From: a virus
Direction: 5' to 3' (one strand)
DNA length: 64,000 bases
IMG/VR virus record: IMGVR_UViG_3300042465_006773
Every line of letters begins with the position of its first letter. Position 1 is the stretch's first letter. A program made the translations under genes and the position numbers. Positions 2,082 through 62,742 of this stretch are shown here, one piece after another. The notes below the pieces were generated by a model that saw only the letters and a program-made list of their open reading frames with translations, was not told the DNA's origin and did not search any database.

Positions 2082-3479
2082 ATGAATACACAAAACATTC
2101 TCAAATATTGGGGTACCAAATTAGATTTGCAACTCGATTCATCAGAATATTATGATTATGAAATAGCAAAGACCGAGGTTGATTACGATGAATTGGTTTT
2201 GGATTTAGAAAATTCAATACCTTACACATCTTTAACTATTAATACTACAGGTTTAACAAATTCAGATTGTACAAGAGATACCATAAGTTTAGTTGAATAT
2301 AATAATACTGTAAATGATACTGGATATACTTATTCAGCGATTACTTGGACTTTATCGTATTCAGCGTTTACTAGTACATTTTCTAATTCTGATATTATAT
2401 TAAATAATGATGTGTATGAATTAAATTTTAGTGGTAACACACACTATTTGAAAATAGATGAATTTAATAACGCACTTTCAAATCCGTTTTCATTAAATCT
2501 TAGTGATTTTAAAACAGGTGTTACGGGATATTCTTATGCTTGTGTTCAAAAATTAACAGATAACGATAATTGTTGCCCACAAGACCCCCAACTAAACGCG
2601 AAACCATGGGCATATCAAATTAATCATGGGGGTGGTAATGACAATTGTTCATATAAAGTTAAGAGAAGAACAGAAAAGGGTTGGACCATTGATTTGGTAC
2701 TTAATAGAGATGATAATCCATGGTCAAGTGGTAAAACAATTTACTATTTAGGTGTTAGGGGTGAAACGGAAAATACAAAGTACTCAGATAATAATCTTTC
2801 TTTTTCTTTTACAAACGACGGTAGGATTCAATGGAGAGCATCGAGATATTCGGGAATATGTTTAACTGATAGTGGGTACACTGAATCATATTATACGTCA
2901 TCAGGACAAACACCGGTACTATGTACGAGTGGGACATCCGAAGATTTTAATATTACCATAACCTTTGAAAGAAATAAATATTTTACTGATTGTGGTATAG
3001 AAAACAATGGTGGTTGGAATGATTTAATTACAGGGAGAACATTAAACACTTCAATATCGGATTGGTTAACTGGTGCAACACCATCGTATGATGATGTAGA
3101 AATTTTAAACAAAAAATGGGCGGAAGAAAAAAATAGAAGGTTAGGGACATTAAAAATTTATCTAAATGGTAAAAAAATTTATAAATTAAATGATTGGGAA
3201 GAGGTGATACCTTCAACAAGGGGATATCAACCTATGATTCAATCTTGGGCTGGTGGAACTCAATATTCAGGAAGCCTACATAATTTGGGTATTTCTTGTT
3301 TTATTTTTAAAAGAATCCAATATTATGAGGAACCATTAAACTATGTTAGAGTTAATCATCATTATTTGGTTGACACTAAACCAAACTATAACATTGTAGA
3401 GTGTGATGAAGATTGCGTTGATTCTACAACGATTATTATAACGGCACCAGAAAATGATTTACAATATGAATATATATAA
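2082..3479 (+). CDS. Virion structural protein with a lectin/LamG-like C-terminal region
   Basis: Beta-rich, T/S/N/C-rich; WTIDLVL...LSFSFTNDGRIQW...ITITF...GTLKIYLNG...IQYYEEPL resembles a concanavalin/LamG fold. Late motif at 2069. Confidence 0.55.
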   Translation: MNTQNILKYWGTKLDLQLDSSEYYDYEIAKTEVDYDELVLDLENSIPYTSLTINTTGLTNSDCTRDTISLVEYNNTVNDTGYTYSAITWTLSYSAFTSTFSNSDIILNNDVYELNFSGNTHYLKIDEFNNALSNPFSLNLSDFKTGVTGYSYACVQKLTDNDNCCPQDPQLNAKPWAYQINHGGGNDNCSYKVKRRTEKGWTIDLVLNRDDNPWSSGKTIYYLGVRGETENTKYSDNNLSFSFTNDGRIQWRASRYSGICLTDSGYTESYYTSSGQTPVLCTSGTSEDFNITITFERNKYFTDCGIENNGGWNDLITGRTLNTSISDWLTGATPSYDDVEILNKKWAEEKNRRLGTLKIYLNGKKIYKLNDWEEVIPSTRGYQPMIQSWAGGTQYSGSLHNLGISCFIFKRIQYYEEPLNYVRVNHHYLVDTKPNYNIVECDEDCVDSTTIIITAPENDLQYEYI

Positions 3480-3494
3480 TAAAATAATAATATA

Positions 3495-5726
3495 ATGCCA
3501 TCAGGAATAAGAATATCGAGTATTAATTTAAGTGGTAAAACCGCCACTGTAACTTTCTTGCCATATACAGGTGGTACATTTAATTTAGGTGAAAAAACTT
3601 TACCATTTGAATATAATTCAAGTTATCCATATGGTGTATATGAACTATATTTTGAATTGTATAATAAAACATATGAGGTAAATGCTTTGTTTCCGTCTCC
3701 TTCTATTACGCCAACAATTACAAGAACACCTTCTATTACGCCAACAATTACAAGAACACCTTCCATAACACCGTCCCCAACACCTAGTGTAATTATAGAA
3801 GATTTAGATTTTGATGGGTTTATTAACTCCGGTTCTATTGTCATAACGTACATAGTATCAATACCAAGTGCGGTTGATTTCGATGTTACTATTGATTTTG
3901 TTCAAGAACTCCCCATAATAGGTGGTGGAAGACCTTTTTACATAAAGGGTAATATAATAATACCAAAAGGTTCTACTCAAGTTGGTACAAAATATTCGTC
4001 ATCAGAAGAGTGGGCTGATTATAGTAAATTATCAGGTGTTAGTGTTTTAACGACAACAGTAACAACACCAGGAGGTTCTAATCGATACACGGTAAAAGAA
4101 CTTATAAAATTTGGGGAGGAACCTCCTGACATTGGACCTATTCCTGATAATCAAATACCCGACCCAAATTCAATATCAATCACACCAACACCAAGTAGAA
4201 CAATTACACCAACACCGACAAGGACGATAACACCAAGTATTACACCAACACCGAGTCAATTACCTTGTGTTTGTAACGGTCCTGTGGGTATTCCTTTTGC
4301 GAACACACCTGGAAACCCAATACCAATAACAATACGAGAAAGTATTGATGGTAACTCAACGGGTTTATACCGTTATTTTCAAGGATGGTTGTCTAATTTA
4401 GTGGATGTTTGTGGTTATCCAAATGGAAACATAAGAGAAGTTTTCAATTACAGACCGAACACGTTTTCTTCAGGTCAAGGTAGTATGTATAGAACGGTAA
4501 CGGATAGTTTTTATACTAAATCTTATTCGTACATGTTGGCAATTAAAACAATACCAAGTGCAGCGCATCTTACAATTCCAAATTTTAAAATAACTGTAGG
4601 TACGGGTGTTAAAGGTGATTGTTCTTTTGGAACATATATCATTAATAACCCATCTTTTAATACGTGGTATGTTATTAGAGTAGATGTAAGAGACATTACT
4701 TTATATGGTAACGAAATTTGGGCACACGTGGTTCAAGAAGGTAATTCAAGTTATTATTTATGTACAAATCCAGGTAATGACTCATGTTGTTATGTAACCA
4801 CATCAGGTGTTGATGTTGGTCAAAACGATTTACCATATAATCATCCCTGTCCGTGTTCTGTAACAAGTTGTCTTGATTTAGGTGTTGTTCCTCCATATCC
4901 TATAAATTTTTGGTGTCCAAATCCTTGGGACACACCGATTTGTACTTTAACACCAACACCATCAAGAACAATTACACCAACCGTAACACCATCAAGAACA
5001 CCAACACTAACACCATCCATCACACCAAGTAGAACTCCATCAGTAACACCATCAAGAACAATTACACCAACACCAACACCATCCATTACACCGAGTATTA
5101 CTCTATCGGTAACACCAACATCCACCAATAGTTCAACACCATCTGTTACACCAAGTGTCACACCATCAGTAACACCAACATCTTCTATTACACCAACACC
5201 ATCCATCACATCGAGTATTACTCCATCGGTAACACCAACATCTTCTATTACACCAACACCATCCATCACATCGAGTATTACTCCATCGGTAACACCAACA
5301 CCATCTATTACACCAAGTATTACACCATCAATAACACCAACATCTTCTATTACACCAACACCAAGTATTACACCAAGTATTACTTCATCAGTAACACCAA
5401 CATCTTCTATCACCCCAAGTGTAACTCCAACAAGAACAATCACACCAACACCAACTCCTTCACCACAATACGTTCCATATTTATTTTGTAATTGTCTTGA
5501 CCCTTATAACAATTCGGGAATTGTTCCACCGTTAGAAGTTGGTGTAAGTGTTAATTTTACAATACAATCTGGTGTACAATATGGATTTATTCATACGGAT
5601 GGTTATTGTTATTTTAACTGTGACCAATGGTCTGGATATACAATGACAAAAGATACATTAACAGTCAATCAATGTAGTACTCCATATTGTGTATCATTAC
5701 CATATCCTCAACCACCAAATCCTTAA
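3495..5726 (+). CDS. Modular appendage/fibre protein: shared N-module, T/P/S stalks, Ig-like and Cys-rich domains
   Basis: N-terminal ~63 aa are homologous to those of 5736 and 62812; three (TPSI/V)n tracts; Cys-rich central domain and tip. Confidence 0.7.
4945..5465 (+). repeat. Low-complexity Thr-Pro-Ser coding repeat (ACACCA-rich), including a 60-bp tandem duplication
   Basis: Repeated acacca/tc(t/c)att/gtaaca units; near-identical 60-nt units at about 5163-5282. Confidence 0.9.
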
Positions 5727-5735
5727 ATAAATTAA

Positions 5736-7487
5736 ATGGATACTTTAAGAATCGTCTCAACAAACTACAATGGTCAATCGGCCGTAATTACGTTTTATCC
5801 CGACACGGGTGGGACAATTAATCTTGGTACTCAAGTTTTACCCTATGATTATGTTGCTCCATATTTTTATGGGACATATTCTTTATTCTTTCCTGCTTTT
5901 GGTAGTACATGTACTTTGTATGTTGAAGACACTTCGGGTAATTTCTTATTACAAGAAAATGGTGATTATATTTTTCAAGAAAATTATTATAAAATTATAA
6001 TAGAGTCTTTACCAAGCCCAACACCAACACCTTCTATTACACCAAGTATAACACCAACTCGTTCAGTAACACCAACACCATCTATTACTACGTCTATAAC
6101 ACCAAGTAGAACTCCATCAGTAACACCAACACCATCAAGAACACCATCTATAACACCGAGTAGAACTCCATCAGTAACACCAACACCTTCTATTACACCA
6201 AGTATAACACCAACTCGTTCAGTAACACCAACACCAACTTTAACACCGACATCAACATCTTATGGTCAATCTTTTATATATTATAGGTGGCAAATAACTG
6301 AATCTAAAACAACACCACCAAATGCAAACTGTGTTCAATCTTCTGAATTTGTTTTTCAAAAAAATGGTGTAGACCAAAGTATGTCCGGTGTTGTGGTAAC
6401 AAACCCTAGTGGAAATAACCCTGTGGGTGAAGAACCATCCAAATTAATTGACGGTAGTTTAACAACAAAAGCATTAGATTTAAATTTTGTTACTAATGGT
6501 AATGTAACGAATTTTATATTTCAATTCCCAACCGGTCAGTCGTTTGATGGGTATAGATGGGGAACCGCAAATGATGAAGAAAGTAGAGACCCAAAATCTT
6601 GGACCATATCAGGAAGTAACGATGGTGTAAATTGGAGTTTGTTACATACGGTAAGCGGATTTAATTCCACAACAACTAGAAATACGTACCAAACTCCTCA
6701 AACTTATTTACCACCAGCAGTAAGTCCTACACCTACAGTTACAAATACACCAACACCAACAAGAACACCGTCAGTAACACCAACACCATCAACAAGTTCT
6801 ATTGTTAATTTTGTTACAGATAGTTTATTTATGAAATTAGATGCCACAAACTATACGAGTGGTACATGGTCGGATGAAACGGGTAATGGTAATAACGCAA
6901 CAATAAATGGCGCGACTTGGTTATCAACCGATGGTGGTATTTTTGATTTAGATGGAACGAATGATACCATTAGTGTTCCTCACGTATCTCAATTAAGTTT
7001 AACCACAACGGGTCAAAAGACCGTGCAAGTTTGGGTTAAATTTGACGCACTACCATCGTCAGGTCAACAAATACCCGTATTTGGGAAGTTGTCAAGTGCA
7101 TCAGGATTTGACGGTTATTGGGGTGGTTTGTTTTCAAATACGGGTACTGTTAGATGTGTAACAAATGGTACCGGTGTCCAACAAATCAGTACTTCAACTT
7201 TAACAATCACAACAAATACTTGGTATTTGTTTACATTTATTTCACAAATAACCTCAACCGCCAATACCACAAAAGTCTATATAAATAATACTGAGTATAT
7301 AACTACAGCACATGGTGCTGATTCATATGGTGAAACAAATCCATTTTATTTAGGATGGATTGGTTCAGGTGTGTCGTCACTATATTTGAATGGTAAAATA
7401 GGTGCATGTTATTTCTATACCAAAGGTTTAAACACCACAGAGATATCAAATAATTATAATTCAACCAAATCAAAATACGGTTTGTAA
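5736..7487 (+). CDS. Modular appendage protein: N-module, TPS stalk, F5/8 (discoidin)-like domain, LamG domain
   Basis: [10 protein letters not shown]...[25 protein letters not shown] is discoidin/CBM32-like; [18 protein letters not shown]...FDLDGTND...VWVK...KVYIN...LNGKIG is LamG-3-like. Confidence 0.75.
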
Positions 7488-7510
7488 AGTTTTAATATTT
7501 ATAAAATAAG

Positions 7511-8134
7511 ATGGCTAATTTACCAATATCACAACTACCGGAAATTACAACAGGACTAACTCCAAATGCGGAGTTCGCGGTTGCACAAGGTGGCACCACA
7601 TACAAAGTAAAAAAAACTTATTTAAAAGAAGGATTTTTTGCTCAAACAAGTGACGGTACAACTGTGAGTGGTACGACATCTGAAACAACAATTATAGGTA
7701 GTGGTGTTGGGTCCTTATCAGTACCGGCGAGTGGATTTTCTGTTGGTGATTCTTTTAGATGTATCGTAAGTGGTGACTTGGGTGCAAATAATAATGACAC
7801 TTTAACTTTAAAAGTAAAATCGGGTTCTGTGGTGTTAGGGACTACCGGTGCAATTAATCTACCTGGCGTAACCAATAAACACTTTAATTTTGATATTCAT
7901 TTTACAATAAGAGAAATTGGGGGTACTGGTGTTGCATCAATAATATCCGTTGGTTTTTTTACATTCAACAAAGACGCGTCCGCTGGTTTTGAAGGTGGTA
8001 GTTTTAGTACATTAAACAATAGTACATTTGATACAACCATTTCAAATACATTAGATATAACCGCACAGTTTAGTTCAACTAATGCTGCTAATTTCATAAG
8101 AACCGAACTTTTAGTTTTAAGTAGAGAATATTAA
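7511..8134 (+). CDS. Putative tail fibre-associated structural protein
   Basis: The MANLPISQLP...VAQGGTTYKV N-terminus is typical of phage fibre/spike proteins; beta-rich C-terminus; late motif at 7496. Confidence 0.55.
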   Translation: MANLPISQLPEITTGLTPNAEFAVAQGGTTYKVKKTYLKEGFFAQTSDGTTVSGTTSETTIIGSGVGSLSVPASGFSVGDSFRCIVSGDLGANNNDTLTLKVKSGSVVLGTTGAINLPGVTNKHFNFDIHFTIREIGGTGVASIISVGFFTFNKDASAGFEGGSFSTLNNSTFDTTISNTLDITAQFSSTNAANFIRTELLVLSREY

Positions 8135-8146
8135 ATAAAATAAAAC

Positions 8147-8515
8147 ATGGAATTTTTTATAAGACAAGGAGCTTCGGAACCAATATTAAAAATGAGACTT
8201 ATCGATGACGGAAAAAACGATAAGTCGGGTTTTAACGATATGTTAGAAAGTTGCGATATTACTTTTGATATGTATGATGTTGAAACAGGTGAACCTGAAA
8301 TATTAAATTCGAATTGTCAAATTACCACAAGAGATAAAAAATATAATCAAACAACTGATGAGTATTATATTGTTCATCAATTTACGGAGTCTCAAACCGA
8401 AAAATTGGGAAAATACGAAGGTAAAATAACCATTCAATTTTTAGATACAAATTTAAATCCAACAACCAAACTAATATTACCGGTAAAGGAAAAACTTTAC
8501 ATTACAATATTTTGA
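8147..8515 (+). CDS. BppU-N/Ig-like small baseplate or fibre-attachment protein
   Basis: FFIRQG..PIL.M.L.D...F.M...Y..QFT..T..G.YEG...I.F....LILP pattern. Confidence 0.55.
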   Translation: MEFFIRQGASEPILKMRLIDDGKNDKSGFNDMLESCDITFDMYDVETGEPEILNSNCQITTRDKKYNQTTDEYYIVHQFTESQTEKLGKYEGKITIQFLDTNLNPTTKLILPVKEKLYITIF

Positions 8516-8541
8516 TTTTTAAATTTTGTTTCTTATATTTT
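8511..8541 (+). promoter_or_regulatory. Bacteroidota-type sigma promoter for the DNA polymerase gene
   Basis: TTTG (8511-14), 19-nt spacer, TATATTTT (8534-41). The Bacteroides consensus is TTTG-N19-21-TAnnTTTG. Confidence 0.55.
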
Positions 8542-8601
8542 AAATAAGACAAACTACAATGTTACATTGTAAGCTAATGTGTCAAACTAAAATTATAAGA
8601 A

Positions 8602-11499
8602 ATGTCAAAAATAATTTCACAAGAGATAATCGAGAACTTTTTAAATGGTTCAGATTCGGAGCAGTACATTGTTGGAGTCGAATATGATTACCAAACAAAC
8701 AAAATTTTTAAAATAATACAGGACCCCGAAAGAGGTAAAATTGTAAAATCAGACACATTAATACCATTTTTATGGGTTGGTGATTTGAGTGAACATAATT
8801 TTTATAGTGGAAATAAGTCACTTCAAAAAAGGAAGATGGCTGAGTTTGGTATCGTAATTGAAAAATTACAGACACATGGTAACGAAAGATTAGAAAACGG
8901 TCAGTGTTTTTTAGTAAAAAGTTTAAAAAATTACACGTCTTTAGTTTCATTTTTTAGATACGGAGGCATTGACCCTTGGAATGAAAAATTCAAACATTTA
9001 TTTACAATATTGTCACCGGTTGAACAGTTTTTAGTTCAAAAGAAAAAAAGACTCTTTAAGGGTATTGACGATTATTCAGGTGTCTATCGTTTTGTTTTTG
9101 ACATCGAGACAACAGGTCTTGAACCTGAAAAAAATAGAATAATCCTTATTGGTGTTAAAGATAATCGTGGTTTTAAAAAAACCATATCGGCATTTGGTGA
9201 TGATGGTGAAAAAAAATGTATAGAAGAATTTTTTGAAATAATAAAAGAATTAAAACCAACAATAATTGGTGGATATAACTCGGCTTCCTTTGATTTTCCA
9301 TTTATTTTAAAAAGGGCAGAAATATTGGGTATAGATATTAAAGAGTGTACTTCAATTTTCACAAACGAAGGTATAAAACAAAAAGAAGGTCTATTAAAGT
9401 TAGCAAATGAAGTGGAACCCTATACCCAACATGTAATATGGGGTCACAATATTGTAGATATATCACACTCGGTTAGAAGAGCACAAGCGATTAATTCGGA
9501 AATTAAATCTTGGGGGTTGAAATACATTACCCAATACTTAGAAAAAGAAAAACCAAATCGTGTTTATGTTGAGGGTTCTATTATTTCTAAGATATATTTA
9601 GAAAACGATAGTTATTATATTAATCCGAAAACGGGTAAATACAAAAAAATTGGTGAACCGGGTACTGAGAACTTATTAGACAAGTATCCTGGTAAATATG
9701 AAATATGGCCGGGTCAAAGAATAGTTGAACAATATCTTGACGATGACTTGTACGAAACAATGATTGTCGATGATTCGTTTTCACAATCAACATTTTTGTT
9801 ATCTAAACTGGTACCAACCACTTATGAAAGAATTGCAACTATGGGTACCGCCACTCTTTGGAAAATTATCATGTTGGCTTGGTCTTACGAAAATGGATTA
9901 GCAATCCCCTCTAAAGATGAAAAGAGAGCCATTACAGGGGGTCTATCAAGATTACTAAATGTGGGATACTCCAAAAATATTGTAAAATTTGACTATGCGT
10001 CCCTTTACCCATCAATTCAATTGGTTTACGATGTTTTTCCTGAATGTGATGTGATGGGTGTTCAGAAATCTATGTTAAAGTATTTTCGAAATATTCGTAT
10101 TAAATATAAAAGATTGGCCGGTGAACTCGCTAAAACAAATCCTGTTGAAGCAGAAATGTACGACCGTAAACAATTACCGATTAAAATTTTTATTAACGCA
10201 TATTTTGGTTCATTATCTGCCCCTCAAGTGTTTCCGTGGGGTGATATGAACATGGGTGAAACAATCACCTGTACGGGTCGACAATGTCTTCGTATGATGA
10301 TTATGTTTTTTGAGAAAAAGGGTTATGTTCCGTTGGTTATGGATACTGATGGTGTTAATTTTTCAACTCCTGAAGACATTGATACTCATGTTTACATCGG
10401 TAAAGGTTTAAATGAATTGGTAGAAAAAGATAAAGAATATAAAGGAATTGAGGCGGACACCGCAGAATTTAATGATATCTTTATGAGAAACGAAATGGGT
10501 CTTGATATTGATTATACCGCACCTGCTTGTATTAATGTATCAAGAAAAAACTATATTATTAAACTCCTTAAAAAAGGAAAAGAAAAAATTAAATTAACGG
10601 GGAACACCATCAAATCTAAAAAACTACAACAATACATTGTAGAATTTTTAGATGAAGGTTTGAAACATTTACTAAATGGTGATGGGTTATCGTTTATTGA
10701 ATTATATTACAAATATGCTGAAAACATTTATAATCAAAAGATACCTCTATCAAAAATTGCAAATAAATCAAGAGTAAAACAATCGGTTGAAGATTATAAA
10801 AAACATATTAAAAAAATAACAAAATCAGGTTCTTTGATGTCTCGTCAGGCTCACATGGAATTAGTTATTCAAAATAATTATCCCGCCGGTTTAGGTGAAA
10901 CGATATACTACATTAATAATGGTAAAAAGAAATCTGATGGTGATGTTCAAAAAATAACAAAACCAACTAAAAAACAACAAGAAGAATATTTTCAAAAACA
11001 TGGAGAACAAATACCATCTGATTATTTGGAGATAAATTGTTACATGATTTCAGAGAGGGAATTGAGTAATAATCCCGAAATGACAGGTGATTATAATGTT
11101 GCCAGATATTTGAATAATTTTAATAAAAGAATTGAACCACTACTGGTTGTTTTTAACCCTGAAATTCGTCATGATATTTTAATCGAAAATCCCGAGAAAA
11201 GACAATATTTTACTAGGGCACAATGTCAATTGGTTAGTGGTTATCCATTGAAAGAAGATGGTCAAGATAAGTATGAAGAAGTGATGACATTATCAGACAG
11301 TGAAGTATTGTTTTGGAATAGAGTTAATAGAGACCCGTTCTTTATGTATGTAGAAGATAGTTTAGAACTTGTAAATCCACATTGGGTTGAATTAAATAGA
11401 AGAGTCGTAAATTTAGAATCTGAAAGTATTAAGAACAATGAGGACGAATACATCGAAAATAACGGAAACGATTTCGCATTCCACGCGGTGGAATCTTAA
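8602..11499 (+). CDS. Family B DNA polymerase with 3'-5' exonuclease
   Basis: ExoI FDIETTG, ExoII GYNSASFDFPFI, ExoIII YLDDD; motif A FDYASLYPS; motif B KIFINAYFG; motif C MDTDG. Confidence 0.95.
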   Translation: MSKIISQEIIENFLNGSDSEQYIVGVEYDYQTNKIFKIIQDPERGKIVKSDTLIPFLWVGDLSEHNFYSGNKSLQKRKMAEFGIVIEKLQTHGNERLENGQCFLVKSLKNYTSLVSFFRYGGIDPWNEKFKHLFTILSPVEQFLVQKKKRLFKGIDDYSGVYRFVFDIETTGLEPEKNRIILIGVKDNRGFKKTISAFGDDGEKKCIEEFFEIIKELKPTIIGGYNSASFDFPFILKRAEILGIDIKECTSIFTNEGIKQKEGLLKLANEVEPYTQHVIWGHNIVDISHSVRRAQAINSEIKSWGLKYITQYLEKEKPNRVYVEGSIISKIYLENDSYYINPKTGKYKKIGEPGTENLLDKYPGKYEIWPGQRIVEQYLDDDLYETMIVDDSFSQSTFLLSKLVPTTYERIATMGTATLWKIIMLAWSYENGLAIPSKDEKRAITGGLSRLLNVGYSKNIVKFDYASLYPSIQLVYDVFPECDVMGVQKSMLKYFRNIRIKYKRLAGELAKTNPVEAEMYDRKQLPIKIFINAYFGSLSAPQVFPWGDMNMGETITCTGRQCLRMMIMFFEKKGYVPLVMDTDGVNFSTPEDIDTHVYIGKGLNELVEKDKEYKGIEADTAEFNDIFMRNEMGLDIDYTAPACINVSRKNYIIKLLKKGKEKIKLTGNTIKSKKLQQYIVEFLDEGLKHLLNGDGLSFIELYYKYAENIYNQKIPLSKIANKSRVKQSVEDYKKHIKKITKSGSLMSRQAHMELVIQNNYPAGLGETIYYINNGKKKSDGDVQKITKPTKKQQEEYFQKHGEQIPSDYLEINCYMISERELSNNPEMTGDYNVARYLNNFNKRIEPLLVVFNPEIRHDILIENPEKRQYFTRAQCQLVSGYPLKEDGQDKYEEVMTLSDSEVLFWNRVNRDPFFMYVEDSLELVNPHWVELNRRVVNLESESIKNNEDEYIENNGNDFAFHAVES

Positions 11500-12655: not shown

Positions 12656-12934
12656 ATGTCTAACAATAATATATTTAATTCTAAAATATTTTATGAGTTT
12701 TTTCTTTTTTGTACAAAAAAAAACATTGATTTTGTTTTAGAAATTAGTGAAAAAAGTAAAATAAAATATAATTCTAATGAAAATAAACTCACTGCGAGTT
12801 TATCAAAAAAAGATGATGAATTCAAACCGCAAATGATTTACAGTGTTTGGAATAAAATTATTGATAATAATATTGTGGATATGGATGAAAAAGAAAAAAT
12901 AAAAAAAGAATTAAATAATTTGTTTGAGAAGTGA
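12656..12934 (+). CDS. Hypothetical protein
   Basis: 92-aa ORF filling the gap; preceded by TTTA-N19-TATATTCA. Confidence 0.55.
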   Translation: MSNNNIFNSKIFYEFFLFCTKKNIDFVLEISEKSKIKYNSNENKLTASLSKKDDEFKPQMIYSVWNKIIDNNIVDMDEKEKIKKELNNLFEK

Positions 12935-45406: not shown

Positions 45407-45414
45407 CAACAATT

Positions 45415-45493
45415 TTGGGTGACTCCCTTAATAGTCAAGGTTAACCTTGAACATCTAATCGTTTGGTCATACAGGGGGTGAAAACTAAACGAT
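45415..45493 (+). ncRNA. Candidate structured RNA with a pseudoknot
   Basis: P1 TTGGGTG/CATCTAA; inner hairpin TCAAGG-TTAA-CCTTGA; P3 ATCGTTTGG/CTAAACGAT; ACTCCCT can pair with AGGGGGT in the P3 loop. Confidence 0.4.
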
Positions 45494-45497
45494 ATAC

Positions 45498-45528
45498 AAT
45501 CCCATCGAATACTCGATGGGATTTTTTT
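45498..45528 (+). terminator. Intrinsic terminator after nrdA/ncRNA
   Basis: AATCCCATCGA-ATAC-TCGATGGGATT-TTTTT. Confidence 0.85.
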
Positions 45529-45541
45529 ATATTTATAATAT

Positions 45542-45910: not shown

Positions 45911-45943
45911 ACTTAGATTTATTGTTTTACTATATTTATAAAC

Positions 45944-46396: not shown

Positions 46397-46397
46397 T

Positions 46398-48230: not shown

Positions 48231-48279
48231 ATTGGATTTATTTTAATTAGAAAATTGTTTATTTTCTATTTATATAGAA

Positions 48280-54644: not shown

Positions 54645-55468
54645 TGAAATTTATAGTAAAAGATACCGACCAAAAAATATTGTTATCGTCAAATCAAACA
54701 TTTAAGTCAGATTTGGGGTGGACGGATAGTGCACAACAAATGGAACAAGAAATTTTATATGACATAATAAATCCGGCTGAAAACTATGAAACAACAAGAT
54801 ACATTCATTCACCGTATTCAGTAACATCTAATAGTGGAACTACATTTACACAAGTTGATATTTGGTATAATTTTTATTTTCTAAACACCTCAAGTGTATA
54901 TAATCAGAATTATGAGTCAGTTGGTATAACATTGAGAGAAAATGCAAAAATGTTAAGACAATCAACTGAAAGTTTTTTTCGTTTAGAGTTTTACAAAACA
55001 ACCAACGATGATTCACCAAATCAAACAAATAGACGATTGGTCTTTTCAAAAAATTTAATATTACCATTGGGTGAAAAAGTTTATTTTACAGGAACACCAT
55101 CTGGTTCAACGTTACCGTTGAATGATTTTGTTTTTCTTCCGGTTTTTACGGGTTCAAATTATAGAAATACCGAAAATATGTATTTCTTTTGGTTTTTGGA
55201 TGATTCACCTTTTAGTGGAACAAACATTACAGGAAATACTTTTTATATGACCGCAAAATTTTATAACGCAAAAGATGGGACAATTATTGATTTTGTTAAT
55301 AAATCAAAGTCTATTGGTCAAGAAATTATTGAAGAAGAAGATGTTTATTATAAAGTAATTATTAATAGAACTGAATACTCATATATTGTTTATCAATATA
55401 ATGGTTCATTAGGTTCACGAAAAGGTCAACTTAGTGCTCCGATAAATTTTTATGAAAGAAGACAATAA
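54644..55468 (+). CDS. Virion structural protein
   Basis: The ATG at 54644 (TAATG overlap) is preferred over the GTG at 54638; SFFRLEFY and FYMTAKFYNAKDG. Confidence 0.6.
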   Translation: MKFIVKDTDQKILLSSNQTFKSDLGWTDSAQQMEQEILYDIINPAENYETTRYIHSPYSVTSNSGTTFTQVDIWYNFYFLNTSSVYNQNYESVGITLRENAKMLRQSTESFFRLEFYKTTNDDSPNQTNRRLVFSKNLILPLGEKVYFTGTPSGSTLPLNDFVFLPVFTGSNYRNTENMYFFWFLDDSPFSGTNITGNTFYMTAKFYNAKDGTIIDFVNKSKSIGQEIIEEEDVYYKVIINRTEYSYIVYQYNGSLGSRKGQLSAPINFYERRQ

Positions 55469-56640
55469 TGGATATTAAACCACCTCTAAAATACGAAATA
55501 CGTAGGAAATCAATTCCCAACTTAAAGTTGTATGCGGTTGATAAACCATATTGGTACAATAGTTTAGGTGGTTTACTTGAATTAACCAATACAAATATAA
55601 TTGATTCTTTAGATGGTTATATAATTTTTAATGTTACTGGTGGCACTGTTTCTTCAGGATATTATATTTGGTCGGGAACAACTTTAGATGGAACGTCATA
55701 TGGTGACACCGATTGTGATTTAAGTTTAAAATTATATGAATGGGAAAACATAAGTAAATCAGAGGCATACGATAACCATGATATTCCCATCTTTTTAGAA
55801 AGTTCAGTGGATGAAATGGGTGTGATGGTTGGGTTTGATGGACAAATTGAACAAGTTGAACAGATATGTAATTTTTCGTATACACAAACAGGTAATACTG
55901 TTTATGTTTATAACACCATTGACACATCAAAAGTATCTGAAATATATGATATAAATTTTACAGTTGATTGGGGAGATGGGACAACATCAATTTTAACTGC
56001 AACAGGTATAACCGCAAATAAAACATATTCTTCCACGGGTACAACCACGATTTCAATTTCGGTAAATACACCATGGACACAATTTGAAACAAAAAAAATA
56101 ATTCAAATACCTTCAAACATAACCATACCAAATCCTTTGGGGACTTTTTCAGGTTTTACGATTCCATATTCTAATGTTACCGGTCAAACACAAAATTATC
56201 TTAATGATTATGACAGTGATTGTGATGGAACATACACAGGTAATACTGTATTTTATTATGCTTCTATTGGTAGGAGTAGAATTAACGAAAAGAAACTTTA
56301 TGGTGCTAACACATATACAGGGGTAACTACGGGAATCACAAATAATTTAGTTTATAGTGCATATACTATTGATGATTTATACTATAGAGATTTTGAAGAT
56401 GGTGTAACAACAATTACAGGTGCAACATCTGGATTTACAAAAGAAGAAGTAATTAATTGTGTTATAACAAGAAATGAACATTTCTTAGGGTTTATTGATG
56501 AACCTGTAATATATTCAGACATATTTGTTGAAAGAGGTAAACAGGGTGTTCTTGAAAAAACATTTAGATTATCTGAAATTGAAAATACCGGAGAATTATC
56601 TTATTATGGTAATGGATATTTTAATATCAGAAAACAATAA
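55468..56640 (+). CDS. Virion structural protein with a PKD-like domain
   Basis: FTVDWGDGT...KTYSSTG..TISI is PKD-like; SDIFVERGKQ...LSEI..YGNGYF at the C-terminus. Confidence 0.65.
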   Translation: MDIKPPLKYEIRRKSIPNLKLYAVDKPYWYNSLGGLLELTNTNIIDSLDGYIIFNVTGGTVSSGYYIWSGTTLDGTSYGDTDCDLSLKLYEWENISKSEAYDNHDIPIFLESSVDEMGVMVGFDGQIEQVEQICNFSYTQTGNTVYVYNTIDTSKVSEIYDINFTVDWGDGTTSILTATGITANKTYSSTGTTTISISVNTPWTQFETKKIIQIPSNITIPNPLGTFSGFTIPYSNVTGQTQNYLNDYDSDCDGTYTGNTVFYYASIGRSRINEKKLYGANTYTGVTTGITNNLVYSAYTIDDLYYRDFEDGVTTITGATSGFTKEEVINCVITRNEHFLGFIDEPVIYSDIFVERGKQGVLEKTFRLSEIENTGELSYYGNGYFNIRKQ

Positions 56641-56665: not shown

Positions 56666-57586
56666 ATGGCAACGGGTTCTTACGGTATAATACGACCATC
56701 AGACATTTCACCAGAAGATGTTGAAATCTACTTTCATTACGTTTTAGATAGGAACGCAACTTCTGATGTAACATTTAAAAAATTAAATTCTGTTGATGTT
56801 TTAACACCTGTTTATCATAATTCTGATACAACAGATGATACATCCGCCCCAAATGTTGAAATATTGGGTGGTTTATATAATTTAAAACTTACATCTGATG
56901 ATTTTTCTGATTTAGGTATCTATACACTTCATATAAGACCAAAACAAATTAGAACAACGATTACCGATTGTGGAATTTTGGCATCCTTACCTTCAGTAAG
57001 GGGTTTAATTATTGATTTATCAAATGTTCCTTCAGATGATAGAAATAAATTTACACCTCAAGGATTGGTAGGGTATAGAATTGAATATATTAATTCATCA
57101 GATAATAAAAAAATACCTAATTTTTATAGAATCGTTACTTCGTCTTTTTATTGCACACCAATTGTTTCAAATTTGACAAGTACTTCTCAAAAAGCAATAA
57201 GATATCAGTACAGTGAACAAGTAACAAATTTGATGTTCTTAACTGTTACACCATCTTCAGCACCAACAAATAAACCAAATACGGTTCCGTTTATTGGCGT
57301 ACCATCTCAAAAAATAATTTTAACAAACACATATTTAAATCCCACAACAATAGAGATAGAAATGGTTGAGCATGATGCGTCAACTCTAGCATATGCATTG
57401 TATGGTAATCAAAGTAAGGCGGTTTCACAAGGTATTTACACCATTTATGACAATAACAACAACATATATAAACAATATAATCTTTACGAAGTTAAAGATG
57501 AATTTAATGAAACATTATATGAGGTTCGTGAAGAGAGAACTGACATTGACGAAACACTAAACTTTGATACTATTACAGAAACATAA
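56666..57586 (+). CDS. Virion structural protein
   Basis: Late motif at 56647; complex non-repetitive 306-aa ORF within the baseplate cluster. Confidence 0.6.
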   Translation: MATGSYGIIRPSDISPEDVEIYFHYVLDRNATSDVTFKKLNSVDVLTPVYHNSDTTDDTSAPNVEILGGLYNLKLTSDDFSDLGIYTLHIRPKQIRTTITDCGILASLPSVRGLIIDLSNVPSDDRNKFTPQGLVGYRIEYINSSDNKKIPNFYRIVTSSFYCTPIVSNLTSTSQKAIRYQYSEQVTNLMFLTVTPSSAPTNKPNTVPFIGVPSQKIILTNTYLNPTTIEIEMVEHDASTLAYALYGNQSKAVSQGIYTIYDNNNNIYKQYNLYEVKDEFNETLYEVREERTDIDETLNFDTITET

Positions 57587-60500
57587 TGGCAAAAAGAAAA
57601 GTACCAAGTCAAGCTGCGAGCGGTGCGGAAACATTTAATGATTTTTTAGTTGGTAGACAAATAACGGATGGAACATCTTCCTTAACCAACACGGTTTTCT
57701 CTTTGGATAAAGTGATACCCCAAAGAGATTCAAAGAGTTTTTCAACAACACCATTTTCAGAATTTTTAACTTTAGATTCGATAAAACAAGTTGATGGTAT
57801 TCAAACCACAACAAGAACAAAAACAAAAAAAACCAATGAGGTTAGTTTTAAATCGAATAAAAAATATGCGGATAAATCATTATTTGGTTCCTTATCTAGC
57901 CGTATTTTAGTTTCTCTAACGAGAATTATTAATAAATTTCCTGGCGCTATTAATATTGTTGCTGATAGTCCGATAAGTAGTTCACCATACAGTGTGTCGG
58001 GTTCAACATACGACGACAGTGCTCACACAACAATATTTTATACTGAAAGAAGTAAATTCTTCAACCCATTTGATTTGGTACTTATTGAACCAAATTCAGT
58101 AATAAAACCTGAAACAGAAAATGAATTAAGGAATTTTTATTCATCATATACCAAATATGTTATTGTTGTTAACAATGTCACATACCCAATTCTTGAATAT
58201 ACGGAACCAAATGTTGATAATGTTATTCAATTTAAAGTTTATGGTCAACCGTTTACCGGTTCTACTTATTTAGGTAATGTTTTAATTAGACCAAATGATG
58301 GACTCATAGAAGAATTTTTCTCAGGTCTTGATGATTTAGAACAATCATTATTAAATAGAGAAACAAATCCCATATATACGTCAAGTTTTAGAGTACCTAG
58401 AGATAGTCAAAATAACTCAAAAACCTCTTTAGTAAGTGTAACAACATCATGGCCTTTATCAAATGATGGGTATAACATTCAAATTACCGGTATAGATTAT
58501 GAACTTTACGTAACAAGATTAAGTGATATTGCAAACGAGATTGATGATTATAAATCAAATTTAATGGTTCGATTTTTATCTTCTCCTCAGTTATTTGAGT
58601 TTGATACGGAAGATAAAAGAGCGGAAAGTGTTTTTCAATTATATGGACAGAGTTTTGATAGTGTAAAAAAATATATCGATAATATTGCTTACATGAGAAA
58701 TGTGAGTTATGATTCGATTAATAATTTACCTGATGTATTATTAAAAAATTTATCTGAAAACCTTGGACTATCAACCACAAATTTATTTGATGAAAAAAAA
58801 TTAGAAGATGTTCTTTATACGAGAATAAACACAACGTATGCAGGTATTTCTACCGGTACAAATTTAGTCGAAGCAGAATATGAGTTTTATAGAAGACTTT
58901 TAGTTAATCTTATTGAGATATACAAATCAAAAGGAACAAGAAAGGCTTTAGAGTTTTTTTTAAAATTTCTTGGTGCACCTGAACCATTAATAAAAATTAA
59001 TGAATATATCTATCAAGTTACATCATTACCCGCGAGTTTTGATTTAGAAGAAGACATTTATGAGGCAATTCAAGGAAATAAAACATACACTTTTGCGGTT
59101 TTAAACGTTACTGGTTATACATATGAAAAGAAAACTTACACAGGAACAACTTCGTTTGATAGAGATGGGTATCCCGTTAATGAAATTAATGGGTTACCAA
59201 GAAGAGCGTACAGTGAAACTGAAGATGTTTTCTTTGAAAAAGGTGCGGGATGGTACGATATAACGTTATCACACCGTTCACCTTTAATATTGGATACCAC
59301 AAACTCCGTTTTAACTGGTAGAACAAAAACAATTATCACAAAAAATAAACCATACACCTATGGTGAAGACTATTTTAATGTTTTTAGAACATTACCAGGT
59401 TTAGATACAGGATATGATTTGGTTTCCGACATAGATAACACCAAAGCTAGACTTAAAGAAGATAATTCAGATTTAATTCTAAATAGAAAAAACATCGAGA
59501 TATATATTTCACCGGCTAGAGCTATTGATTACGATGTCTTTAGACGTAGTAAAGAATTGGAAATTTCTTTTGGAACAAACAACAATTTACCAACACAAAC
59601 AGGAAAAACGTTTGTTGAATTTTTAGATACATTTATTCATAATCTTGTAAAGAATTCAAATAAAATTCGATACAAAAAGAATTATATTCAATTGGAAGAT
59701 GTGTATCGTGATTATCTTTCACAAACCACGGGTTTTACACCATATCACCAAATTACTGTAACAGAATTTGTTGATAAAATTTCACCATATTGGGTTCAAT
59801 TAATTGAACAATTGGTACCAGCGTCCACACTTTGGACAGGTGGTAATTTAATTGAAAATAATGTATTCGGAAGACCAAAATATCCATATGTTTATGATTG
59901 TCAACCCCTTCAATTTATTGAAGAATTATATCCCGATTTTGAAACATATATCGAAGAAGATTTAGAAAACATATTAGGAGAAGAAATTAATTTTAGGTCT
60001 TTATTAAGATTGACGGGAGTTACTTTTTATCCGATAATTGAAATAGACGGAGTGATATATGGTGGGGCCGATTATAGTGGATTAACTTCAAATATGTACG
60101 TTGTTTTAAGTGGGACAACCAACACTTCAAATAGCGCGAAATTATTTGATTTACAACCTTTAACTGGTTGTACTAGTGGTGTTACAAGTAACGACCCAAT
60201 CAATTTATCATTGATTTGTGATTATAAAGATTATTTAGAACCCGATGTTGATAAAATCAAAGAATTGTGGTTAGATGCTTTAAGTGAATTAATTTCAGAT
60301 ATTACGATTACTCGAAATAGTGCAGGATACGAACCATATTCCCCATTTACAGGTACAACAGGACAAACATATTATTCTGAAACAATTCCATTAATAAAAT
60401 GGGAAACATTTACCGATGTAAATGGTGTCGAAAAGGTCAGATTTTCTTCCGTAAAATTAGGACCAAATGATTGTTCTGTTTCTGAATATTTTGATTATAG

Positions 60501-62742
60501 ATTTGAAACGGATTATAGTGTTAACAAGAATAGTAATTTAATGAGTGCACATGTATACGGTGACGGTACCGTATATTGTGAAACCCCAACTGGTTGTACT
60601 TTAGTTTCCGATTTATTTATTGAATTAATTGGTTATAAGACGGGTGTACAAGAAGGGACCGATTGGTCATTTTATTTTTATGCAAATTGTATAAGTGGAA
60701 CAAATGAAAATGCTGACGTTCATATCGAAAAGGTTAGTGATTGTATATACAAATTAACGGGTGTTTCCGAAAATGATGTTATAAATTTTAATGTTATTGA
60801 TTCAGCAAATAAAGAGGTTAAATTTAAAATTTTGGGGTTACAACCAAAATTTGAACATGACCCGTGTCCCGAACCTAGTGGTAAAACACACACGGAAATT
60901 TTTGAAATTGTTAGTTATCAAGGTACATCTGGAAACCCAATTTCATCATATTCTGAAGTCGTCTTTTGTGACAATTACACGGGATATACAATTCAACCAA
61001 AATTAGAATATAAAACGAATTTTGATTATGGTTTAAAATGTGATTCAATTGCTTTAAAAATCGATAATTCATTAACAATAGATGATAGTACGACATATCA
61101 AGACGTACAATCTTTTATTAGTGGGGGGACAATCACAAAAGTAAATGTATGTAATTTATCCGTTGGTGATTATATTTTATCAGCTGAAGTTAGACCATGT
61201 ACAACATATTCACATCAGAATATTTTAGATGGAATGATGTCAGGATTTTCTTTCACATATGGATATAGAAAAGTACAAATAACAAGTATCGAATGTTTAG
61301 GTTCTGTTAGGAGTAACTTAATAACAGGATTGACTCAAAATAATGATTATGAGGTTTTTGAAGTTCTTCCAACTACACAACTTAGGGTTTATACAAACAA
61401 GTCTGTTGAGAATTTTGGTGTTCCTGAAAATGGTCGTTATTTCTTTGATTTTAGATTTCCGGAAGAATTGCAAATAAAACCTTCGGATTTTATTGAACCA
61501 TGTTGTAATCATCCAAAAGAATTATATAATCATGGTGATTATTTGATAAACCAATACGGATTCCCAATTGAAGTTATAGATGTCGATTTGGATTACTGTA
61601 ATCCTAATCTGTATTTTAATTTAAATCTTGAAACTGATTGCGGACCATATAACGATACACTGTTAGTTGTTTTTAACGGCAACGTAGATGAACAACTTTT
61701 ACTTGGACATAAATATGAAAACCACCCTGGTCTTGGATTTGATTTGGGTCAATATTATGTCGACGATGAGTGGTGTCCGGACGTACCAACCGATTTTGAA
61801 TTATTAAATGACGTTTTTTGTCCTTCTCCACCACCAACACCTTCTATTACACCAACACCAACAAAAACACCTTCTATTACACCAACACTAACAAAAACAC
61901 CTTCGACTACACCAACGCCAACAAAAACACCATCGGTGACTCCATCTGTAACACCAACTAGTTCTTTAACACCGCAGTCAACACCTTCTACTACACCATC
62001 TGTAACACCAACTAGTTCTTTAACACCATCGGTGACTCCATCAAGAACACCTTCTACTACACCATCTGTAACACCAACTAGTTCTTTAACACCGCAGTCA
62101 ACACCTTCTACTACACCATCTGTAACATCAACTAGTTCTGTTACACCATCGGTGACTCCATCAAGAACACCATCTGTAACACCAACTAGTTCTTTAACAC
62201 CATCGGTGACCCCATCAAGAACACCATCGGTGACTCCATCTGTAACACCAACTAGTTCTTTAACACCGCAGTCAACACCTTCGACTACACCATCTGTAAC
62301 ATCAACTAGTTCTGTTACACCATCGGTGACTCCATCAAGAACACCATCTGTAACATCAACTAGTTCTGTTACACCATCGGTGACTCCATCAAGAACACCA
62401 TCTGTAACACCATCTGTAACACCAACTAATTCTTTAACACCTTCGGTCACCCCATCCATTACACCAACTAATTCCTTAACCCCATCATTAACACCAACTA
62501 ATTCCTTAACCCCATCATTAACACCAACACCGAGTTGTCCACCTTGTTATTTTTATTTAATTGAAGGAACAGGTGGAAATGAGGTTTCTTACATCCAGTG
62601 TAATGGCACTTTATCTGCATTTAGTGTATCTAATGGTTCGAGTGATACAATATGTGCCAGACCCGGTACAATCACGTTTTATCCAAGTCCAAATCCGGCA
62701 CCAAATGTAACACAACAATCACAATGCGGAAACCAATGTTAA
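57586..62742 (+). CDS. Baseplate wedge gp7/P2 gpI-like protein extended with Cys-rich domains and a TPS stalk
   Basis: NLPD.LL..L...LG, YRRLL.NL..IYKSKGTRKALEFFL..LG...I.INEY (gpI/gp7-like); ~240-aa TPS tract followed by a Cys-rich tip. Confidence 0.7.
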   Translation: MAKRKVPSQAASGAETFNDFLVGRQITDGTSSLTNTVFSLDKVIPQRDSKSFSTTPFSEFLTLDSIKQVDGIQTTTRTKTKKTNEVSFKSNKKYADKSLFGSLSSRILVSLTRIINKFPGAINIVADSPISSSPYSVSGSTYDDSAHTTIFYTERSKFFNPFDLVLIEPNSVIKPETENELRNFYSSYTKYVIVVNNVTYPILEYTEPNVDNVIQFKVYGQPFTGSTYLGNVLIRPNDGLIEEFFSGLDDLEQSLLNRETNPIYTSSFRVPRDSQNNSKTSLVSVTTSWPLSNDGYNIQITGIDYELYVTRLSDIANEIDDYKSNLMVRFLSSPQLFEFDTEDKRAESVFQLYGQSFDSVKKYIDNIAYMRNVSYDSINNLPDVLLKNLSENLGLSTTNLFDEKKLEDVLYTRINTTYAGISTGTNLVEAEYEFYRRLLVNLIEIYKSKGTRKALEFFLKFLGAPEPLIKINEYIYQVTSLPASFDLEEDIYEAIQGNKTYTFAVLNVTGYTYEKKTYTGTTSFDRDGYPVNEINGLPRRAYSETEDVFFEKGAGWYDITLSHRSPLILDTTNSVLTGRTKTIITKNKPYTYGEDYFNVFRTLPGLDTGYDLVSDIDNTKARLKEDNSDLILNRKNIEIYISPARAIDYDVFRRSKELEISFGTNNNLPTQTGKTFVEFLDTFIHNLVKNSNKIRYKKNYIQLEDVYRDYLSQTTGFTPYHQITVTEFVDKISPYWVQLIEQLVPASTLWTGGNLIENNVFGRPKYPYVYDCQPLQFIEELYPDFETYIEEDLENILGEEINFRSLLRLTGVTFYPIIEIDGVIYGGADYSGLTSNMYVVLSGTTNTSNSAKLFDLQPLTGCTSGVTSNDPINLSLICDYKDYLEPDVDKIKELWLDALSELISDITITRNSAGYEPYSPFTGTTGQTYYSETIPLIKWETFTDVNGVEKVRFSSVKLGPNDCSVSEYFDYRFETDYSVNKNSNLMSAHVYGDGTVYCETPTGCTLVSDLFIELIGYKTGVQEGTDWSFYFYANCISGTNENADVHIEKVSDCIYKLTGVSENDVINFNVIDSANKEVKFKILGLQPKFEHDPCPEPSGKTHTEIFEIVSYQGTSGNPISSYSEVVFCDNYTGYTIQPKLEYKTNFDYGLKCDSIALKIDNSLTIDDSTTYQDVQSFISGGTITKVNVCNLSVGDYILSAEVRPCTTYSHQNILDGMMSGFSFTYGYRKVQITSIECLGSVRSNLITGLTQNNDYEVFEVLPTTQLRVYTNKSVENFGVPENGRYFFDFRFPEELQIKPSDFIEPCCNHPKELYNHGDYLINQYGFPIEVIDVDLDYCNPNLYFNLNLETDCGPYNDTLLVVFNGNVDEQLLLGHKYENHPGLGFDLGQYYVDDEWCPDVPTDFELLNDVFCPSPPPTPSITPTPTKTPSITPTLTKTPSTTPTPTKTPSVTPSVTPTSSLTPQSTPSTTPSVTPTSSLTPSVTPSRTPSTTPSVTPTSSLTPQSTPSTTPSVTSTSSVTPSVTPSRTPSVTPTSSLTPSVTPSRTPSVTPSVTPTSSLTPQSTPSTTPSVTSTSSVTPSVTPSRTPSVTSTSSVTPSVTPSRTPSVTPSVTPTNSLTPSVTPSITPTNSLTPSLTPTNSLTPSLTPTPSCPPCYFYLIEGTGGNEVSYIQCNGTLSAFSVSNGSSDTICARPGTITFYPSPNPAPNVTQQSQCGNQC
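61822..62535 (+). repeat. TPS coding repeat with multiple identical 30-120-nt blocks
   Basis: For example ccatctgtaacaccaactagttctttaacaccgcagtcaacacc x3, and acaccatcggtgactccatcaagaacacc several times. Confidence 0.9.

Follow-up and report, generated by a model that had tools for sequence, protein, structure and literature searches.

Does a four-residue word that recurs in the tail proteins of a large bacteriophage mark the places where an enzyme attaches something to the virion? The question is raised by a stretch of 64,000 nucleotides from the IMG/VR virus record IMGVR_UViG_3300042465_006773, referred to here at its full length as the window, in which the motif [ST]-G-x-T is concentrated in a few proteins encoded between positions 2082 and 62742. 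An original prediction, made from the sequence alone, held that the motif saturates virion proteins and spares enzymes, and proposed that it is a recognition site for an enzyme that decorates the virion surface, for example a phage O-glycosyltransferase. The enrichment is confirmed; it is real and strong, and stronger than that prediction could know. The interpretation finds partial support. The counts that follow establish how specific the motif is, that it is confined to certain proteins and to one clade of phages, that it lies in loops, that its sites turn over and that it co-varies within genomes. We infer the further steps, namely, that some protein reads the motif, that this protein is an enzyme and that what it attaches is a sugar.

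The window comes from an AT-rich jumbo myovirus (about 30% GC). PHROG and Pfam searches, which covered most of the window's open reading frames (ORFs) and 36 ORFs of two related genomes rather than whole proteomes, named the tail sheath (16638-19493), the tail tube (19803), the baseplate hub (20791), a gp25-like wedge protein (45944) and a gp6-like wedge protein (46398-48230), along with a DNA polymerase, SNF2-type and DnaB-type helicases, a UvsX-like recombinase, NrdA and NrdB. The first of the two related genomes, G001, is an IMG/VR record that is 98% identical to the window and spans window positions 1-49809 plus 16.7 kb upstream; the second, G002, is a complete genome of the same clade, 310,542 bp long with terminal repeats. 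The comparison set consisted of 105 related viral and metagenome loci.

Enrichment of the motif

We scored [ST]-G-x-T in each ORF against 2000 composition-preserving shuffles of that ORF. Eight ORFs, called carriers here, stand out: pooled (7850 amino acids [aa]), they hold 81 motifs against 9.8 expected, an observed/expected ratio (O/E) of 8.3 with a z score of 22.4. The remaining 33 window ORFs (12668 aa) hold 14 against 11.8 expected. Seven of the eight carriers lie at z 5.5 to 12, their observed counts being reached by 0 or 1 of the 2000 shuffles. The by-eye counts of the original prediction proved exact or nearly so when the motifs were counted directly: there are 12 in the 390-aa protein encoded at 55468, 10 in the sheath and 9 in the protein at 52884, and the proteins at 2082, 28815, 48280 and 57586, which had been said to hold many, have 9, 8, 11 and 19, respectively. 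The low counts given for enzymes were also right, with one motif in the DNA polymerase (8602-11499) and none in NrdA (41897-45406) or the SNF2-type helicase (12911-14665).

The excess survives control for Ser/Thr/Gly composition over whole proteins and locally. With residues shuffled only within segments of 10 to 50 aa, which controls for local richness in these residues, z is still 3.7 to 13.3; the global and local shuffles together rule out composition or local richness as the main cause. Permuted words in the carriers give O/E values of 1.02 (T.G[ST]), 1.01 (G[ST].T), 0.51 ([ST]G..T) and 1.53 ([ST]G.S), and [ST]G.[^ST] is depleted (0.53). The fixed positions are coupled, since 81 of 139 [ST]G dipeptides continue as xT and 81 of 116 G.T words have Ser or Thr before them. 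At +3, counting the first Ser/Thr as position 0, Thr is strongly preferred over Ser. The x position is nearly free, with Asn (12), Thr (12) and Ser (9) together making up 33 of 81 and neither Pro nor Glu occurring. When all words with three fixed positions were ranked without bias toward any of them, TG.T and SG.T came out on top once low-complexity repeats of Thr, Pro, Ser and Val were removed; the same two words lead in the G002 carriers, and the other 354 ORFs of that genome have nothing like it.

The signal is one of protein and not of DNA, because enrichment was looked for and not found in the other five reading frames of the carriers and the motif is written with Ser codons of both families and with every Thr and Gly codon. 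A DNA-level motif is thereby ruled out. As to codon choice, AGT is the codon for 18 of the 33 Ser residues at position 0, against 25% of the other Ser codons in the same proteins; AGT is also frequent at non-motif Ser residues before Gly (28 of 82), so a codon-pair effect explains part, though not all, of the bias.

The word does not overlap with known glycosylation sequons. N[^P][ST], the N-x-S/T sequon of cytoplasmic N-glycosylation (HMW1C/NGT type), is found 112 times in the carriers, with 112.6 expected. General O-glycosylation in Bacteroidota uses the sequon D-(S/T)-(A/I/L/M/T/V) and acts on exported proteins; the original prediction had set the phage motif apart from it, and this host word is indeed not enriched in the eight carriers (34 against 33.1). 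Overlap with either sequon was rejected on these counts.

Restriction to outer tail proteins

Saturation of virion proteins, as first proposed, describes one part of the particle well and another part not at all. It holds for the outer domains of the sheath and for a set of baseplate-adjacent ORFans (ORFs with no PHROG or Pfam family), and it fails for the tube, the hub, the wedge core and, in G002, the capsid and portal. The right category is outer tail proteins, not virion proteins generally. Within the window, motifs are absent from the tube (19803), the hub (20791), the gp25-like protein (45944), the gp6-like protein (46398; 610 aa) and the 642-aa product of the ORF at 21695, and the 1615-aa product of the ORF at 23655 is not enriched (2 against 1.3). 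The mucin-like proteins encoded at 3495, 5736 and 62812, which are the richest of all in Ser and Thr, are not enriched either.

The complete genome gives the same picture. Of the 133 motifs in G002, 89 (10.2 expected) are in 9 of its 363 ORFs, which total 6817 aa, and the other 354 hold 44 against 30.9. These nine comprise the sheath, five ORFs that follow the wedge genes and a further three. In G002 the portal has no motif in 924 aa, and the tube has none.

Restriction to one clade

All 87 related clade loci are enriched, with O/E ranging from 2.09 to 12.59. A non-redundant set of 444 clade ORFs holds 1299 motifs against 284.3 expected, 1020 of them in the 96 ORFs with p<1e-3. Outside the clade the excess is absent or slight. 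The Microcystis phage Mel-JY01 (locus L088), the closest cultured phage by sheath similarity, has 6 motifs against 7.2 (O/E 0.83), with none in its 776-aa sheath and none in giant ORFs of 1348 and 2255 aa; the five sheath sites that can be aligned to its sheath have no motif there. (We note that a gene for ribosomal protein bS21 is annotated in this phage at 10204-10431.) The Xanthomonas jumbo phage XacN1 has 70 against 68.9 (1.02), with no excess in any of 319 ORFs. In phage T4 the structural region has 11 against 11.3 (0.97) and a second region 12 against 6.6 (1.8), and the remaining values are 1.8 for a region of Flavobacterium phage immuto (38 against 21.1), 1.57 for LR756508 (5 against 3.2) and 1.59 for phage NCTB (15 against 9.4).

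The original prediction had allowed that a preference for beta-turns might account for the enrichment. A general preference of this kind among phage tail proteins is ruled out by the O/E of 0.8 to 1.8 in the six outside phages, and two further comparisons point the same way. Among 150 homologs of the 390-aa protein, some have no motif at all, namely, P0007 (331 aa, 47% identity), P0077 (353 aa) and P0106 (330 aa); homologs of nearly full length that lack the word indicate that the fold does not demand it. In a search for the contig that encodes P0007, the best matches were 46-49% identical. Generic PKD-repeat proteins, which might carry the motif as a property of PKD or Ig-like domains, are mostly at or below expectation (P0058, 4 against 7.9; P0112, 12 against 11.8; P0113, 1 against 7.5; P0145, 2 against 4.2; P0127, 8 against 3.8), and with no general excess among them we ruled out that explanation too.

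Location of the sites

The sequence around the sites has a distinct character. Of the 81 sites, 47 have a hydrophobic residue at -1 (27.7 expected) and 39 have one at +4; Thr or Asn is enriched at -2 (35 sites), and hydrophobic and polar residues alternate upstream. The flanks thus look like amphipathic beta-strands. In the 390-aa protein (55468-56640), 11 of the 12 sites fall at junctions where homologs have insertions, compared with 5.2 for random placement (P 0.001), and at one site the motif supplies the conserved glycine in the turn of a PKD-like core. In the sheath, the sites had been described as lying in the N-terminal and middle regions and not in the conserved C-terminal core, and this is borne out: they are at residues 121-303, 590 and 653, in the N-terminal and middle domains, and all ten are outside residues 658-950, which align to residues 342-653 of T4 gp18. 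For the outer domains of the sheath, the PDB contains no solved relative. Taken together, these positions suggest that the motif sits at the tips of strand-loop-strand units. Tandem doublets are over-represented about 2- to 2.5-fold (33 against 17.5 at a spacing of 3, and 42 against 16.7 at a spacing of 4), and spacings of 7 to 12 residues are over-represented as well.

Turnover and co-variation

In close relatives the sites are conserved and x varies freely. Over longer distances the sites come and go. The 53 homologs of the 390-aa protein that were compared site by site have 0 to 14 motifs each at 53 distinct sites, no one of which is present in more than 20 homologs and 37 of which are present in four or fewer. 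An ancestor bearing all 53 is impossible, and sites must therefore have been gained repeatedly. Between homologs at 30 to 85% identity, 873 of 2059 sites are retained; in these pairs the motif Gly is less conserved than other Gly residues (0.60 and 0.73), and the motif Thr is somewhat more conserved than other Thr residues (0.59-0.60 and 0.47).

Motif density in this protein also follows the motif excess of its neighbors. Over 30 non-redundant loci the two are correlated with a Spearman coefficient of 0.69 (p 3e-5), a statistic that takes no account of kinship among the loci.

The carrier proteins and their neighborhood

All eight carriers are encoded on the plus strand, and apart from the sheath all are ORFans. 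The first (2082-3479; 465 aa, 9 motifs against 0.6, z 11) lies beside putative glycosyltransferase genes upstream, precedes the mucin-like fiber genes and has no PHROG or Pfam family and no signal peptide visible by eye; feature matches to Laminin_G_3 clusters in the ESM Atlas (score, 0.93-0.94) provide a weak lead toward a ConA/LamG-like fold. The same resource gave nothing for the ORF at 56666. The sheath (16638-19493; 951 aa, 10 against 1.6) matches phrog_23, tail sheath, at 5e-63. The ORF directly before it (15232-16326, plus strand; 364 aa) is borderline, with 2 motifs against 0.27 (p 0.03), and stands outside the eight. In the 1930-aa carrier (28815-34607; 8 against 1.5, z 5.5), which has no family, the motifs cluster at residues 860-1134 with one more at 1815.

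The other five carriers follow the wedge genes. Directly after the gp6-like gene comes a 1534-aa ORFan (48280-52884; 11 against 1.9, z 6.7) with no relative in the PDB, and then a 586-aa ORFan (52884-54644; 9 against 0.63, z 10.9), a 276-aa protein (54638-55468; 3 against 0.25, p 0.0015), the 390-aa protein (55468-56640; 12 against 0.92), which is the densest carrier and the anchor of the family analysis, and a 1718-aa protein (57586-62742; 19 against 2.4, z 10.7), whose motifs lie at residues 138-1247. Inspection of the eight N termini by eye, with no predictor run, revealed no charged n-region followed by a hydrophobic h-region, so that any modification of these proteins would be cytoplasmic.

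The core of the 390-aa protein, at residues 155-235 or so, is PKD-like, with the pattern WGDG...TY...G.T.I.I.V set beside the family pattern WDFGDG...HxY...GxYxVxL. It has no Pfam match at E values up to 0.1, and a profile of the 53 homologs finds only weak matches to PKD chains in the PDB (E 0.006-0.02), among them 4xed (0.0063), 1l0q (0.0083) and ColH (0.014). PKD-repeat proteins do occur among its homolog matches, with many matched stretches.

The original prediction spoke of unrelated folds, and this stands as far as BLAST and profile-profile comparison reach. Apart from a mucin-like repeat, BLAST among the eight carriers detects no common ancestry, and the best probability in profile-profile alignment with hhalign is 9.4%, the rest being 1.4% or less, with three of the eight profiles built on a single homolog. 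Hidden paralogy or a shared domain was ruled out on these grounds. The repeat, rich in Thr, Ser, Pro and Val, makes up the C-terminal part of the 1718-aa protein (residues 1387-1654 or so) and is common by BLAST to the ORFs at 62812-63999, 3495-5726 and 5736-7487. The last three share an N-terminal module, which keeps one [ST]-G-G-T at residues 24-28 or so in all three paralogs. A domain of about 110 aa is also shared between residues 341-446 of the fiber protein encoded at 3495-5726 and residues 847-954 of the baseplate-adjacent ORFan at 48280-52884 (38% identity, E 6.5e-14).

A further motif-rich gene lies away from the tail module. In G001, a 457-aa ORF (L164:3091-4464) has 7 motifs against 0.59 and a weak CBM96-like match; it is located about 12 to 13.5 kb upstream of the window start, on the minus strand of the window. 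The left part of the window (2082-11499) is syntenic with positions 41127-48751 of G002 (L104, L136), both running from a motif-rich ORF through a variable insert to the DNA polymerase gene. The insert holds two mucin-like fiber genes in the window, and in G002 it holds a 265-aa ORF and a gene for a GT60-like glycosyltransferase. The polymerase has 965 aa in the window and 1323 aa in G002, where the family B enzyme (44783-48751; L104:4783-8751) has a LAGLIDADG_3 match at residues 820-882, making an intein probable. Matches to ribonucleotide reductase families cover residues 1-440 and 707-1113 of the 1169-aa NrdA (41897-45406), and the gap of about 270 residues between them is probably an intein or other insertion.

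Search for a candidate enzyme

The presumed enzyme had been placed outside the window, and no glycosyltransferase (GT) family was found in any window ORF searched. Looking elsewhere in the relatives, we found GTs to be recurrent among the G001 and G002 ORFs searched. G001 has a borderline GT2 match beside a sigma-factor gene about 6.5 kb upstream of the window (22.6 bits, the cut-off being 23.3). Several are encoded by G002: a 505-aa protein with two GT2 domains (PF13712 and PF00535), a 237-aa GT2_4/GT92-like protein (PF13704/PF01697) whose gene adjoins that of a methyltransferase, one weak GT2 match and one weak GT-B match, and a 416-aa PF11397 protein of the GT60 type (polypeptide N-acetylglucosamine transferase; 7e-63), whose gene immediately follows a pair of motif-carrying ORFs and precedes the DNA polymerase gene. 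For GT1 the matches were no more than weak. We detected no clear cohesin or CsgG gene in G002.

None of these enzymes could be linked to the motif. PF11397 is absent from 14 control genomes, and neither the enzyme nor strong motif enrichment is seen in Mel-JY01, immuto or T4; it was not found in the four partial clade records, G001 and G003-G005. GT60-like homologs occur in 4 of 50,697 phage records, those of XacN1, Xoo-sp13, CM1 and RAS14. The XacN1 homolog, annotated as ORF334 glycosyltransferase, is 47% identical to that of G002 and matches PF11397 at 4e-77. Presence of the enzyme fails to predict enrichment (O/E 1.02 in XacN1), and it could not be assigned as the reader of the motif. In XacN1 (loci L140-L155) it is words of Thr and Pro that are over-represented (TPT, 311 against 37), and the G002 carriers show TPT and PTP as well; so far as these two lineages go, the companion of the GT60-like enzyme is the mucin-like repeat and not [ST]-G-x-T. 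The double GT2 protein of G002 has no homolog covering more than half of it in the 50,697 phage records, 10 of which match its second domain only. GT2 as a class was rejected as a guide to the reader, being present in the non-enriched Mel-JY01 and immuto.

A possible recognition site and the alternatives

One exact word that arises convergently in unrelated proteins, in exposed loops, within one lineage and with genome-wide co-variation is best explained by a trans-acting reader. We propose, with a probability of roughly 0.4, that [ST]-G-x-T is read by an enzyme acting in trans in the cytoplasm, a phage O-glycosyltransferase being the likeliest candidate. The Ser or Thr at position 0, at the end of a beta-strand and the start of a loop, would be the likely acceptor; Gly-x would form a tight turn, with a small residue required beside the acceptor; and Thr at +3, where the return strand begins, would serve as a determinant or a second acceptor. 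The enzyme would be soluble and phage encoded, working in the cytoplasm of the host while the tail is being assembled or earlier, and selection would repeatedly create the motif anew at strand-loop-strand tips of outward-facing tail proteins. More tentatively, the clade as a whole, taken to be freshwater jumbo phages of Bacteroidota, may run its own cytoplasmic O-glycosylation with a strict [S/T]-G-x-T sequon on hairpin tips, new copies of which in sheath surface, baseplate and fiber proteins would give the tail an evolving glycan coat.

Several observations weigh against such an enzyme. None could be tied to the motif. XacN1 has both a GT60-like homolog and reported glycoproteins with no motif enrichment (70 against 68.9), and the mucin-like Thr/Pro repeats common to XacN1 and the clade would make the likelier target, and a more natural substrate, should the GT60-like enzyme glycosylate virions at all. 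GT2 genes are also found in Mel-JY01 and immuto, both without strong enrichment, and GT9 (PF01075, the Aah/TibC family) is absent from all five clade records, the complete G002 included. The G002 capsid, which offers the largest exposed surface, is not enriched (2 motifs against 0.5 in the major capsid protein), and unrelated phage fibers show mild enrichment (6 against 2.04 in T4 gp37; 38 against 21.1 in the immuto region). The co-variation statistic (Spearman 0.69) ignores the shared ancestry of the loci. The preference for Thr over Ser at +3, the Gly at +1 and the amphipathic flanks would equally suit an ordinary two-residue beta-hairpin in which Ser/Thr and Thr pair across the strands. Finally, most known O-glycosyltransferases have, to our knowledge, no strict sequon.

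The alternative that survives best takes up that hairpin. Phi-[ST]-G-x-T-Phi, where Phi is a hydrophobic residue, could be a very stable two-residue beta-hairpin, with Gly in the turn and Ser/Thr opposite Thr on the solvent side, that the lineage reuses as a structural idiom in fast-evolving beta-sandwich domains of the tail, with nothing attached to it. The strand-like amphipathic flanks and the position of sites at indel-prone turns, one of them the canonical PKD turn glycine, are what such an idiom would produce, and so are Thr rather than Ser at +3, as for a residue in a strand, Asn, Thr and Ser as the commonest residues at x (33 of 81), the over-represented spacings of 7 to 12 residues, as in beta-meanders, and the mild enrichment in the unrelated T4 and immuto fibers. 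Other observations speak against it. The eightfold excess is found in one clade only, homologous folds elsewhere carry no motif, and generic PKD-repeat proteins are not enriched. The motif Gly is less conserved than other Gly residues (0.60 against 0.73), and with 53 sites in 53 homologs the word has been reinvented at new positions. Density co-varies between unrelated proteins of one genome. Two adjacent motifs, as in the doublets at spacings of 3 and 4, cannot both be two-residue turns. At +1, moreover, Ala is mildly enriched ([ST]A.T, 10 against 3.8) and Asn and Asp are not, which points to a need for a small residue and not for a positive phi angle. We regard a bare structural idiom as the main rival, somewhat less probable than a site read by an enzyme.

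If the motif is a modification site, the group attached need not be a sugar. A phage or host enzyme might instead phosphorylate, acylate or nucleotidylate the Ser/Thr, a reading that the case for a trans-acting reader serves equally well; the word has two fixed hydroxyl residues, and no GT has been tied to it. Among the ORFs searched (most of the window's and 36 from G001 and G002, which are less than whole proteomes), GTs recur and no kinase or other protein-modifying enzyme was found, and we judge a modification of this kind improbable. An equally small chance attaches to a non-covalent address, in which the hairpin tips would bind an assembly chaperone or decoration protein, or would contact a repetitive polymer of the host surface at adsorption. 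Limitation of the motif to outer tail and sheath proteins of one clade would suit such a role; a specific interface, on the other hand, is ill matched by 81 copies, spread over eight proteins and in rapid turnover, of a four-residue word whose x is free, and no candidate partner was identified. That the excess is an artifact of composition, low complexity, hidden repeats or paralogy, or a DNA-level motif is very improbable. The eight proteins are indeed rich in Ser, Thr and Gly and one has a mucin-like repeat, but the shuffles, the permuted words, the other reading frames and the BLAST and hhalign comparisons all speak against it, and the proteins richest in Ser and Thr (3495, 5736 and 62812) are not enriched.

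Should a glycosyltransferase indeed read the motif, no O-sequon would have been defined in a phage before [ST]-G-x-T, nor any sequence rule for the sugar decoration of phage particles, and coated virion surfaces would become predictable from sequence alone. It would mean that the tail surfaces of environmental phages, and not capsids alone, are shielded or tuned by glycans, and it would supply a short, portable tag for the cytoplasmic glyco-engineering of proteins. Even if nothing is attached, a convergent tetrapeptide that co-varies across a genome is a clean statistical signature of a reader, and one that can be scanned for in any phage genome.

Comparison with known systems

Literature searches by term found no description of the [ST]-G-x-T word in phage proteins. 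Among the systems to which it can be compared, that of the presumed host phylum, Bacteroidota, is set apart by the carriers themselves, in which neither enrichment of its sequon nor, by eye, a signal peptide is found. Large freshwater phages with predicted Bacteroidota hosts, the "moraphages," are described in part of PMC12619734 as having four core groups of glycosyltransferases. Another part of that source deals with glycosylation of mycobacteriophage virions, in which phage-encoded transferases place glycans at the C termini of capsid and tail-tube subunits (PMC12619734). The mycobacteriophage transferases are reported to decorate structural proteins of the virion in the cytoplasm (Freeman et al. 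2023), and the present clade also carries several transferase genes, together with a methyltransferase gene; unlike the mycobacteriophages, it has no motif in the tube and no enrichment in the G002 capsid, and its word is found in internal loops. For XacN1, at least two virion glycoproteins are mentioned in a passage of PMC5852040; this phage shares the GT60-like homolog of the clade and differs from it in having no [ST]-G-x-T excess.

Two systems come closer. Aah and TibC of Escherichia coli, which act on AIDA-I, TibA and Ag43, are cytoplasmic O-heptosyltransferases that place many O-linked sugars on Ser and Thr of a beta-rich surface protein. In their substrates the acceptor Ser/Thr opens a short loop that joins two beta-strands, and sequence statistics would place the Ser/Thr of [ST]-G-x-T in just that position. 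The differences are that Aah recognizes no sequence consensus, whereas the phage word fixes three positions; that the Aah/TibC substrates are autotransporters and those considered here are phage tail proteins known from sequence; and that GT9 is missing from five of five clade records. The capsid glycans of chlorovirus PBCV-1, according to the portion of PMC9614988 devoted to them, are attached at the atypical sequons NTXT and NIPG by a virus-encoded cytosolic machinery. The likeness here lies in a short, virus-specific word with Thr at +3 from the acceptor. PBCV-1, however, is a eukaryotic virus, and its capsid protein bears N-linked glycans on Asn at four sites, whereas [ST]-G-x-T occurs in bacteriophage tails with up to 19 sites per protein; if it is indeed glycosylated, it would be a counterpart of the NTXT sites in the bacterial world.

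The carriers thus fail the features that define membership in the mycobacteriophage, Bacteroidota, GT9 and N-glycosylation systems, with which they may nonetheless share a way of working. By analogy, Aah/TibC is the nearest system in mechanism, and the chlorovirus NTXT site is the nearest viral example of a private sequon.

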